Shown piece after piece: positions 4,068-6,889 of a stretch of DNA of 7,307 bases. The stretch lies in the IMG/VR virus record IMGVR_UViG_2619619129_000005, one strand, 5' to 3'. A program made the translations under genes and the position numbers. Positions within the stretch are counted from its first letter, which is position 1. Each line of letters opens with the position of its first letter. The stretch is from a virus (taxonomy: Duplodnaviria; Heunggongvirae; Uroviricota; Caudoviricetes). The notes beneath the pieces are model-generated. The model was not told where the DNA came from and did no database searches. It saw nothing but the letters and a program-made list of their open reading frames with translations.

Positions 4068-4279
4068 GAATCATTCTTTCCTTCGTTCGAGGTGCTATCC
4101 TGCTTCTTGTAAAGTTCTGGGTTGTATTTCAATTCACCGTTAGTAATTTCATCCAGTTCCATTGCGCGAAGTTTGGGAATAACTGCTTTCCACCGCACAA
4201 CAGCCACATGTGAAATTCCAAGAGCCTCAGCTACTAGTCGCTTTTTTTTGAAATAGCGCAGAACATCATCTTTGAACAT
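4064..4279 (-). CDS. Cro-like HTH protein of the YdaS/DicC family (71 aa)
   Basis: ORF MFKDDVLRYFKKKRLVAEALGISHVAVVRWKAVIPKLRAMELDEITNGELKYNPELYKK... with HTH signature (LGISHVAVVRW). ATG at 4279..4277 with AGGAG (complement of 4286..4290) 6 nt upstream. Divergent from the repressor gene. Confidence 0.8.
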   Translation of the reverse strand: MFKDDVLRYFKKKRLVAEALGISHVAVVRWKAVIPKLRAMELDEITNGELKYNPELYKKQDSTSNEGKNDS

Positions 4280-4370
4280 AAAACTCTCCTGTTATTCCGA
4301 GCAGGAGGGTAACAATAGTTACATAGCAATGTCAACCATAGCAACATCACTTGGTAGTAACATTGGTTAC
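4280..4370. promoter_or_regulatory. Divergent OR-like region with two GTAAC-N4-GTTAC operator palindromes
   Basis: GTAAC-AATA-GTTAC at 4309..4322 and GTAAC-ATTG-GTTAC at 4357..4370, centres 48 bp apart. TTGACA on the minus strand (complement of 4330..4335) is a candidate -35 for the Cro-side promoter. The 91-bp gap between divergent start codons is typical of an immunity switch. Confidence 0.55.
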
Positions 4371-5045
4371 ATGAAAAACACTATCAGCGAACGTATTCGG
4401 AATCGTCGAAAAGACGTTGGATTAACCCAACAGCAGGTTGCGAAAGCAATCGGCATATCTCGTGTATCCGTAACAAAATGGGAAAATGGCTCTTCAAAAC
4501 CTGACGGTGAGAATTTGCATCTACTGTCAAAATTGCTTTCCAAATCTCCTGAATGGATTCTTTATGGAAAGGACGGTCACGATAAAACCGATGATCTGCG
4601 TCTGAATCAGTATCTTTACATTAGTGACAACATCGCCCGGTTGCCCGTTTTAACGTGGGAACAGGCTGGTTATTGGGATATGAGTTGTCCAGTAACCGAG
4701 ATTCCTGGCATTAAGAATTGGGTTGATGTCATGACAAAAACCGCTGAAAACTCTTTTTTATTGCATGTTGAGGGAGATGCGATGACAAACTCTAACGGCC
4801 TCCCAACCATCCCCGATGGATCTACCGTGCTGATCACACCATGCTCAAGTAACATTAGAGAACTGGTGGGAAAAATAATCTTAATCCAATTGGAAGGAAC
4901 GCCAAACGTAACACTAAAAAAAGTTGCGATTGACGGACCAAACATCTATCTGTTGTCACTGAATCCGCTTTACAAACCCATCGAACTGAATGGTGGTTAC
5001 ACCATTAAAGGTAAAGTTTCACAAATACATCAATACTTAGACTGA
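4371..5045 (+). CDS. dicA: Prophage repressor: DicA-like HTH N-domain plus LexA/CI-type S24 C-domain, with Ala at the catalytic Ser position
   Basis: N-terminus MKNTISERIRNRRKDVGLTQQQVAKAIGISRVSVTKWENG resembles DicA as I recall it. C-domain LLHVEGDAMTNSNG...TLKKVA...LNPLYKPIELNGGYTIKGKV aligns by eye with lambda CI (VEGNSMTAPTG...FKKL...LNPQYPMI...VVGKV). Start placed at ATG 4371 so both operators stay intergenic (leaderless, like lambda cI from PRM). Alternative starts: ATG 4329 and TTG 4272 (ORF-track start). The symbol is by family resemblance only; K-12 DicA is shorter and lacks the C-domain. Confidence 0.75.
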   Translation: MKNTISERIRNRRKDVGLTQQQVAKAIGISRVSVTKWENGSSKPDGENLHLLSKLLSKSPEWILYGKDGHDKTDDLRLNQYLYISDNIARLPVLTWEQAGYWDMSCPVTEIPGIKNWVDVMTKTAENSFLLHVEGDAMTNSNGLPTIPDGSTVLITPCSSNIRELVGKIILIQLEGTPNVTLKKVAIDGPNIYLLSLNPLYKPIELNGGYTIKGKVSQIHQYLD

Positions 5046-5632: not shown

Positions 5633-5851
5633 ATGCAGAAACGAGAACCCGTCATCATCGCGCCAGACTATACCGATGATGAACTTTATGAGTGGATGCG
5701 CCAGAAAATTAATGCAGCGCAGGATCTGAAATGGGCTAATGAAGCCAGGGTTAAGCAGGCTGAAAATCTGTCCGCTCTGGAGCAGGATATCACCAATCTG
5801 GAAAAAGCAGCGGCATTAAGCATTGCCAGAATGATTACATACCCGCGTTAA
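5633..5851 (+). CDS. ydfC: Small prophage protein (72 aa), YdfC-like
   Basis: ATG 5633 with GAGGA 6-7 nt upstream; product MQKREPVIIAPDYTDDELYEWMRQKINAAQDLKWANEARVKQAENLSALEQDITNLEKAAALSIARMITYPR. Size and position match K-12 ydfC; symbol by synteny. Confidence 0.65.
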   Translation: MQKREPVIIAPDYTDDELYEWMRQKINAAQDLKWANEARVKQAENLSALEQDITNLEKAAALSIARMITYPR

Positions 5852-6192
5852 TAGATAACCAACGAAGCTAAGGTTGGTAATTAAGGAGTTCTCCACGGGT
5901 GAGGTGGAGTGCGTGCGCCGGACACGGGTGAGCATCCGGCACTGACAGTTTACTGAAAGGATATTTCCCTGAAAAGTCAGACCATAACGCGAAAGCGCAC
6001 GGCGAGGTAGCTGGTTCATAGATAGCCTGTCGTTAAATTTTCGTCGACCGTGCGCTTCCGGTTGTGGCAATCCGCGAAATGGCGCGGCGGTAAGTATGGC
6101 GGGGGTATTCCTTCCCCCGTTGAGGACACCGGGTTGTCAGGTTGACCATACGCTTAAGTGACAACCCCGCTGCAACGCCCTCTGTTATCAAT

Positions 6193-6250
6193 TTTCTGGT
6201 GACGTTTGGCGGTATCAGTTTTACTCCGTGACTGCTCTGCCGCCCTTTTT
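6193..6250 (+). ncRNA. dicF: DicF-like small RNA (about 53 nt) with intrinsic terminator
   Basis: TTTCTGGTGACGTTTGGCGGTATCAGTTTTACTCCGTGACTGCTCTGCCGCCC (6193..6245) followed by TTTTT (6246..6250). GGCGG (6209..6213) pairs with CCGCC (6240..6244). The sequence agrees with my recollection of K-12 DicF and sits in the long gap between ydfC and dicB. Exact 5' end is uncertain because it is made by processing. Confidence 0.6.
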
Positions 6251-6419
6251 AAAGTGAATTTTGTGATGCGGTGAATGCGGCTAAGCGCACGCGGAACAGT
6301 TAAAACCAAAAACAGTGTTATGGGTGGATTCTCTGTATCCGACGTTAATTGTTAACTGGTTAACGTCACCTGGAGGCACCAGGCACTGCATCACAAAATT
6401 CATTGTTGAGGACGCGATA

Positions 6420-6608
6420 ATGAAAACGTTATTACCAAACGTTAATACGTCTGAAGGTTGTTTTGAAATTGGTGTCACTATCAGTAACCCTGTATTTACT
6501 GAAGATGCCATTAACAAGAGAAAACAAGAACGGGAGCTATTAAATAAAATATGCATTGTTTCAATGCTGGCTCGTTTACGTCTAATGCCAAAAGGATGTG
6601 CACAATGA
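6420..6608 (+). CDS. dicB: Cell-division inhibitor DicB (62 aa)
   Basis: Product MKTLLPNVNTSEGCFEIGVTISNPVFTEDAINKRKQERELLNKICIVSMLARLRLMPKGCAQ matches DicB as I recall it. ATG 6420 with GAGGA (6408..6412) 7 nt upstream. The ORF-track version (from 6315) includes an unlikely 5' extension. Confidence 0.85.
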   Translation: MKTLLPNVNTSEGCFEIGVTISNPVFTEDAINKRKQERELLNKICIVSMLARLRLMPKGCAQ

Positions 6609-6796
6609 ATTCAGCATTTGCGCTTGTTCTGACAGTTTTTCTTGTTTCCGGAGTGTCAGTTGATATTGCAGTCAGTGTTCACAGGACAATGCAGGAGTGT
6701 ATGACTGCAGCAACCGAACAGAAAATTCCCGGTAACTGTTACCCGGTCGATAAAGTTATTCACCAGGATAATATCGAAATCCCGGCAGGTCTTTAA
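6605..6796 (+). CDS. ydfD: Small membrane protein YdfD-like (63 aa), reported lysis-type protein
   Basis: ATG 6605 overlaps the dicB stop (ATGA); product MNSAFALVLTVFLVSGVSVDIAVSVHRTMQECMTAATEQKIPGNCYPVDKVIHQDNIEIPAGL with an N-terminal hydrophobic helix. Size and position match K-12 ydfD. Confidence 0.75.
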   Translation: MNSAFALVLTVFLVSGVSVDIAVSVHRTMQECMTAATEQKIPGNCYPVDKVIHQDNIEIPAGL

Positions 6797-6889
6797 AACA
6801 GTTCCGTAATAAATATCCGGTTTCATTTTTATATGCCAGCAATGGCAGGGATTTGTTCATCCTTAAATCTGTCATGAGGTTAAAACAAA

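Follow-up and report, generated by a model that had tools for sequence, protein, structure and literature searches.

DicF and DicB are textbook prophage inhibitors of cell division. How their dose is set is still being worked out (PMC10448788). In the 7,307-nucleotide stretch of viral DNA analysed here (the window), the ‘spacer’ of 175 nt ahead of dicB is bracketed by a long inverted repeat, which raises the question of what the repeat does. A preliminary description had offered two answers, a stem-loop in read-through RNA or a pair of protein-binding sites in DNA, either of which would gate expression of dicB and ydfD.

Domain and genome comparison identified the window as the immunity and early region of a Qin-like lambdoid prophage, with the genes and RNA elements collected in table 1. 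The ydfB and ydfC open reading frames (ORFs) have no Pfam family. DicF was matched by Rfam RF00039 at 6194–6245 (76.7 bits), and the MG1655 dicF annotation (1649382–1649434) maps to 6193–6245 of the window. Neither a terminator-like nor a + strand promoter-like site turned up at 5850–6850, and because there is no + strand promoter-like site between DicF and dicB, the RNA domain described below and dicB are made only by read-through of the DicF terminator. The repressor carries an S24 (LexA-like) peptidase domain; DicA of K-12 has been described without a RecA-cleavable bond (PMC10448788). Given the S24 domain, the prophage in the window may be SOS-inducible. The dicB frame is open upstream as far as a GTG at 6315, within the RNA domain, giving a 97-amino acid ORF (6315–6608, + strand). 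This extension is unlikely to be coding, because homologues carry indels in H2 whose lengths are not divisible by three.

Table 1. Features of the window in gene order, followed by the elements of the RNA domain upstream of dicB.
Feature	Position	Strand	Remarks
Cro-like gene and YdaT-like gene		−	first in the gene order of the window
Prophage repressor	4272–5045	+	HTH and S24 peptidase domains
ydfA (DUF1391)			after the repressor in the gene order
ydfB and ydfC			between ydfA and DicF; names from best E. coli genome matches
DicF sRNA, 53-nt form	6193–6245	+	3′ end is a Rho-independent terminator hairpin; U-tract 6246–6250
dicB Shine-Dalgarno (SD), GAGGA	6408–6412	+	from sequence; 4 nt outside P1
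dicB (62 aa), toxic cell-division inhibitor	6420–6608	+	ATG 6420–6422; Pfam DicB, 1.9e-40
ydfD	6605–6796		overlaps the dicB stop codon; DUF1482, 5e-25
P1 5′ arm	6253–6273	+	contains the perfect 15-mer 6255–6269
Junction AAU	6274–6276	+	invariant columns in alignments A1 and A3; GUGAAU invariant in 39/39 family representatives
Hairpin H1	6277–6292	+	6277–6281 pairs with 6287–6292, A6289 bulged; in the minimum-free-energy fold
Pseudoknot 5′ strand, CAGUUAA	6297–6303	+	pairs with 6352–6358
Variable region H2	6305–6340	+	length and sequence vary between copies (A1, A3)
Hairpin H3, the GTTAAC-rich palindrome	6341–6367	+	stem 6341–6348/6360–6367
Pseudoknot 3′ strand, UUAACUG	6352–6358	+	in the H3 loop
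Hairpin H4, CCUGG-AGGCA-CCAGG	6369–6383	+	from the Rfam alignment; 100% of cells paired, an invariance partly due to H4 serving as a search pattern in collecting copies
P1 3′ arm	6384–6404	+	contains the 15-mer 6388–6402

The repeat itself is as the preliminary description had given it: TGAATTTTGTGATGC (6255–6269) is the exact reverse complement of 6388–6402, verified on the sequence and by script. A repeat search lengthened the arms to 19 nt (6255–6273 and 6384–6402), and when G·U pairs are allowed the RNA helix, here termed P1, comprises 21 uninterrupted base pairs (6253–6273 with 6384–6404; 19 Watson–Crick and two G·U), in line with the largely unbroken RNA duplex of at least about 20 bp that marks an RNase III site. 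The GTTAAC-rich palindrome enclosed by the arms is also real, the repeat search returning GACGTTAA (6341–6348) and TTAACGTC (6360–6367) around an 11-nt spacer, with GTTAAC copies at 6351–6356 and 6359–6364. A perfect inverted repeat of at least 15 nt within a 250-nt span occurred in one of 300 dinucleotide-preserving shuffles of the whole window. The fold of 6194–6440 has a z-score of −5.96, with none of 200 shuffles folding as well, and P1 is present in both the minimum-free-energy and the centroid folds; the earlier proposal that the arms pair in read-through RNA, bracketing the whole DicF–dicB spacer, is borne out by this helix. In K-12 MG1655, a T at 6269 turns one pair into G·U, so that the perfect DNA repeat is just 14 nt long while the RNA helix is the same; K-12 and the window differ at three positions in the DicF–dicB region, none of which breaks a helix.

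Both arms are strands of P1, the closing helix of a structured RNA domain of approximately 150 nt, arranged in the order P1–AAU–H1–linker–variable H2–H3–H4–P1. The simple 135-nt stem-loop envisaged earlier thus gives way to a conserved, multi-helix, pseudoknotted interior related to STnc100. The palindrome forms H3, and the region is rich in GTTAAC because the H3 loop pairs with 6297–6303 to form the pseudoknot. The structure line of Rfam RF02076, as returned by cmscan, shows no pseudoknot.

An E-value-thresholded Rfam scan (201-nt search) matched RF02076, STnc100, to 6257–6397 with 33.5 bits (E = 4.8e-6), which is below the gathering cut-off of 47 bits for this family. At the gathering threshold there is no match in the window or in the other copies of what we term the GAAUGCGGC subclass; canonical STnc100 copies (for example, loci L007, L013 and L026) do reach it. 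The window shares with STnc100 and the related PasD sRNAs a closing helix ending in GGUG/CACC (the P1 of the Rfam model being aligned to 6266–6273 and 6384–6391), the invariant GAAU junction, an H1 with a bulged A, H3 and a prophage location. The 3′ hairpin has the common form CCNGG-AGGCA-CCNGG, which is CCGGG-AGGCA-CCCGG in STnc100, with a compensatory U–A for G–C in the window. The two differ in H1, which is GCGGC.../GC-CGC in the window and CCCCC.../GG-GGG in canonical STnc100 (CCCCC...GG-A-GGG), and in P1, which has 21 bp in the window against about 8 bp in STnc100 (8–9 bp being usual for the family). The window also lacks the 3′ tail and Rho-independent terminator of STnc100, matching positions 21–154 of the 206-position model with the tail (approx. 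155–206) absent, and its domain is part of an mRNA and immediately precedes an ORF, unlike the stand-alone STnc100 gene. Sequence and predicted structure place the domain, as a divergent member, in the prophage STnc100/PasD-type RNA family, within the GAAUGCGGC subclass. Both PasD, from EPEC/EHEC prophages, and STnc100 are sRNAs that associate with Hfq and have targets by RIL-seq, according to a 2026 preprint (bioRxiv 10.64898/2026.05.13.724894) that links PasD to STnc100 and makes no mention of DicF, dicB, kilR or RNase III.

Further copies were collected from IMG/VR, scanned for the 3′ hairpin pattern, and from GTDB genomes, scanned for a subfamily pattern, which together yielded 149 loci and approximately 100 distinct copies; alignment A1 holds 39 subfamily sequences and alignment A3 holds 39 family representatives. 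Covariation of the arms in homologous loci, which the preliminary description had singled out as informative, is evident, with pairing kept and sequence changed. In A1, P1 is 89% paired, compared with 33–40% when the partners are slid by 1–3 columns, and 16 of its 21 pairs have changed on both sides among these 39 related sequences. The outer arms AAUUUUGUGAU, ACCUUGCAAU and GCUUUAAGGUG each retain their complement. On the + strand, G·U outnumbers A·C in P1 by 58 to 14, which indicates that the helix has been selected as + strand RNA, not as DNA. Across the whole family (A3), P1 is 92.6% paired, H1 99% and the pseudoknot 77%. Changes on both sides were observed in three of five H1 pairs, with a wholesale GC-for-CG exchange between subclasses (A3), in seven of eight pairs of the H3 stem and in six of seven pseudoknot pairs (A3), while the variable pair of H4 is UA in 24 cases and GC in 15. 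Complementarity between the pseudoknot strands scores 5 or more in 36 of 37 representatives despite unrelated sequences (for example, AAGGUUG/CAACCUU, AGACUGACAAA/UUUGUCAGUCU and ACUGGAUA/UAUCCAGU), averaging 6.4 with the own partner and 4.2 with cross-partners. None of 500 shuffles matched the observed covariation score in A3. The covariance model built from A3, R1, scores the window at 103.5 bits and the P7 copy, which was outside the training set, at 104 bits; R1 found no second copy of the domain in the window.

Sensitive blastn searches against phage genomes revealed 6240–6404 as a stand-alone conserved block in phages without dicB, and this block coincides precisely with the arm-bounded stretch. 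It lies just upstream of kilR in Rac-SA53 and in the C1-controlled tRNA/ban operon, upstream of terB, in P7 and D6, and it is also carried by Stx phages. The module is found ahead of kilR and other prophage genes in Escherichia, Shigella, Citrobacter, Klebsiella and P1-like phages. The length of the P1 helix follows its context, at approximately 18–22 bp in operon-embedded copies compared with 8–9 bp in mostly stand-alone copies. All copies with a P1 of at least 18 bp are embedded in mRNAs and free of a terminator, with an SD and ORF 15–35 nt downstream. The 62 copies with a P1 shorter than 10 bp include 42 with a terminator-like hairpin within 120 nt and four with an adjacent ORF. The ORFs that follow long-P1 copies encode DicB, KilR, a Rha/Ash-family regulator, proteins of 94 and 64 amino acids, and hydrophobic peptides of 36–38 amino acids. 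Because a DicF-type terminator precedes most long-P1 copies, a DicF-like sRNA, the folded domain and a toxic or regulatory ORF make up a recurrent three-part cassette.

A Rac-type cassette consisting of a DicF-like terminator, a long-P1 domain and kilR is present in Rac-SA53 (locus L002, 2501–2716) and in loci L011, L022, L052, L068 and L072. Relative to the Qin type, its P1 is altered by a bulge of one nucleotide and a U·G pair, and the DicF-like part of L002 is below the Rfam gathering score. In loci from Klebsiella and related genomes (L036, L041, L095, L129 and L144), the long P1 is followed by strongly hydrophobic ORFs of 36–38 amino acids, such as MSRNGIRSLVIVLAICLVAWSATIIKILHVTGVLNG, with no Pfam match; these could be small membrane toxins.

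What, then, is the long helix for? A 72-nt form of DicF is reported to be made by RNase III, in statements that cite Faubladier 1990 (PMC5069750, PMC9438474), so that, for the near-identical sequence of K-12, RNase III dependence is established in the literature for an end approximately 19 nt beyond the DicF terminator. Another paper counts the dicA–dicF–dicB intergenic region among RNase III substrates, together with intercistronic processing sites (PMC2777011). Counted from the DicF start at 6193/6194, the 3′ end of the 72-nt form falls at about 6264/6265, a position taken from secondary citations and good to a few nucleotides. This is the middle of the 5′ arm of P1, with about 9 bp of helix above it and 11–12 bp below, a coincidence that the preliminary description had not remarked upon. 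No other long duplex takes in 6264, and we strongly infer that P1 is the duplex cut by RNase III. In transcriptome data, Table S1 of Gordon 2017 contains a ‘dicF-dicB’ site, flagged as known, at U00096.3 1649470, which maps to approximately 6281 of the window and has no reads in either wild-type replicate and 26 in the rnc mutant. What this coordinate marks is a peak in coverage ratio, not a mapped RNA end; it is based on those 26 reads and lies 17 nt from the inferred cut.

On this evidence, the helix is very probably the extended P1 of an STnc100-like domain serving as the RNase III processing site that generates 72-nt DicF. Transcription of the domain would require RNA polymerase to read past the DicF terminator. 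In operon-embedded copies, P1 would have been lengthened from 8–9 bp to approximately two helical turns and so become a substrate for host RNase III, which would cut both strands of P1, the cut at approximately 6264/6265 yielding 72-nt DicF from read-through transcripts. RNase III cuts leave a 2-nt 3′ overhang, and from this geometry the partner cut is predicted at approximately 6393–6395. That cut would free a dicB–ydfD mRNA with an unstructured leader of approximately 26 nt, and the two cuts together would excise a folded core of approximately 128 nt.

A further form, 190-nt DicF, has an RNase III-dependent 5′ end, expected at approximately 6056–6057 (PMC10448788). A hairpin at 6047–6090 (ACCGUGCGC...GCGCGGCGGU around a 6-bp inner stem) lies where this end should fall. 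A second STnc100-like copy upstream of DicF was considered as its source and rejected, since the fold of 6020–6200 has a z-score of only −0.83 and neither Rfam nor R1 gave a match there.

Two readings would deprive the helix of any role in RNA. A chance match might point to the one shuffled window in 300 that held a 15-nt perfect repeat, yet covariation over dozens of loci, the fold z-score and matches to both Rfam and covariance models make coincidence practically inconceivable. Alternatively, the arms might act in DNA, as the paired protein-binding sites proposed earlier or as MITE-like terminal inverted repeats, and the occurrence of an arm-bounded unit of approximately 165 bp in such unrelated phage contexts as Qin-like, Rac-like, P7, D6 and Stx phages speaks for this reading. 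Against this, arm sequences vary between copies while complementarity is kept; the excess of G·U over A·C is strand-specific, as expected of RNA; no target-site duplication is present at the ends (flanked by AAAG and TTGT); and the interior covaries in RNA fashion, pseudoknot included. A DNA-level function is therefore highly improbable.

Other readings accept the RNA and differ over what it does. The helix and domain could form a cis-acting gate on the toxic gene downstream, which we regard as possible and rather doubtful. Uncut structure might limit dicB translation until cleavage activates it, in the manner of the lambda N leader. Alternatively, cleavage might expose an unstructured leader with a 5′-monophosphate and speed decay, as in rpsO-pnp and metY-nusA. 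The invariable placing of long-P1 copies just upstream of an SD and ORF is in keeping with a gate, as is the toxic or regulatory nature of several of these ORFs (DicB, KilR, the Rha/Ash-family protein and the 36–38-amino acid hydrophobic peptides). By partition function calculation, the probability that the SD is unpaired is 0.15 before cutting and 0.30 in the predicted cut mRNA; the low value for the read-through RNA is due to weak pairing of the DicF U-tract (6247–6250) with UGAG of the SD region. This pairing is, however, not retained in kilR-type copies, and opening of the ribosome site takes a similar amount of energy or less before cutting (9.2–14.7 kcal/mol, compared with 12.4 kcal/mol after). 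The SD and AUG lie outside P1, unlike those of RBS-sequestering leaders, and occlusion of the SD by the helix was discarded as a candidate when thermodynamic modelling gave no clear effect. Of the stem-loop gate put forward in the preliminary description, then, the RNA pairing holds, whereas the modelled folding gives no sign that the helix buries the ribosome-binding site and the opening energies are similar. Cleavage could alter mRNA stability instead of translation. A perfect 10-nt complement between 6397–6406, in the dicB leader and P1 3′ arm, and 6602–6611, at the start of ydfD, was set aside as probably fortuitous, the ydfD junction varying among homologues without compensation.

Function might instead reside in the folded core (approx. 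6265–6393), as a trans-acting or protein-binding RNA product like STnc100/PasD, the long P1 allowing RNase III to free it from a polycistronic transcript in place of a promoter and terminator of its own. This idea, which we hold as tentatively as that of a gate, is compatible with P1 being the RNase III processing site for 72-nt DicF and merely places the function elsewhere. Canonical relatives are stand-alone sRNAs with terminators, as is mostly true of the short-P1 class; Hfq association and RIL-seq targets are on record for both PasD and STnc100 (bioRxiv 10.64898/2026.05.13.724894); copies divide into long and short P1 along the same line as into embedded and stand-alone; and the conserved pseudoknotted core suggests more than a spacer function. 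Embedded copies nevertheless lack the 3′ tail or U-rich terminator that is the usual Hfq-binding end, and a literature search turned up no mention of this RNA species. The absence of wild-type reads at approximately 6281, within the core, against 26 in the rnc mutant suggests that such a piece, once excised, fails to build up, a point softened by the possible loss of small fragments from RNA-seq libraries of this kind. A more ambitious proposal, to which we attach little weight, is that the spacer represents a widespread, unrecognised STnc100/PasD subclass, a compact pseudoknotted domain put by prophages immediately ahead of toxic or regulatory genes (dicB, kilR, rha-like genes and small membrane peptides), its closing helix extended into an RNase III site. 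The domain would then be a sensor or effector that controls both the formation and the cutting of P1, for example in response to a ligand, a protein or temperature. If that were true, the dose of a prophage toxin would be set post-transcriptionally, independently of the repressor.

As the probable RNase III processing site of the dicF–dicB transcript, P1 resembles the intercistronic sites of rpsO-pnp, metY-nusA-infB, the T7 early R sites, the lambda N leader and sib, in all of which a helix of approximately two turns in a polycistronic transcript is cut to part an upstream RNA from a downstream mRNA; in contrast to their simple hairpins, the helix in the window closes a conserved, pseudoknotted core of 110 nt. 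Leader hairpins that sequester a ribosome-binding site likewise place structure immediately 5′ of the ribosome-binding site of a toxic gene, and differ in enclosing the SD and AUG that P1 leaves free and that modelling does not show to be clearly occluded. The put antiterminator RNAs of HK022 are also structured RNAs in a lambdoid early operon, and an RNA of that kind could act in cis on the transcribing polymerase, but the element in the window lies after, not before, the DicF terminator. Homology with put was rejected, the best R1 score in HK022 24000–32000 (the PL/PR region) being 7.8 bits with an E-value of about 1.

The processing event itself has been known since 1990, and what the present analysis offers is a concrete structure for the RNase III cleavage that makes 72-nt DicF. 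We found no paper that describes the dicF–dicB spacer as a structured RNA, in a literature search that reached the 1990 work through later citations; the family assignment, the pseudoknot and the rule linking long P1 to embedded copies appear to be new. The 175-nt ‘spacer’ ahead of dicB becomes a conserved folded RNA related to STnc100/PasD, and the Rfam STnc100 family is extended by the GAAUGCGGC subclass, which its current threshold misses. Predicted from the model are RNA ends at approximately 6264/6265 and 6394 and an excised species of approximately 128 nt, both dependent on P1 pairing. With RNase III cutting here long known, this is an incremental step unless a regulatory role of the core itself comes to light.

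Two minor observations concern the wider distribution of the family. A 254-kb record for Aeromonas phage AP1 (MT713136.1) contains, at 249906–250152, a sequence 99.2% identical to window positions 6183–6429. Such a match is unexpected for an Aeromonas host and may reflect contamination or recent transfer. Canonical STnc100-type copies occur in tandem arrays of two to four, often beside phage tRNA genes (L013 2265–3380 on the − strand, L026, L029, L101 and L122), and the P7 copy, in the C1-controlled ban operon, is likewise flanked by tRNA genes. This adjacency may hint at processing shared with tRNAs.
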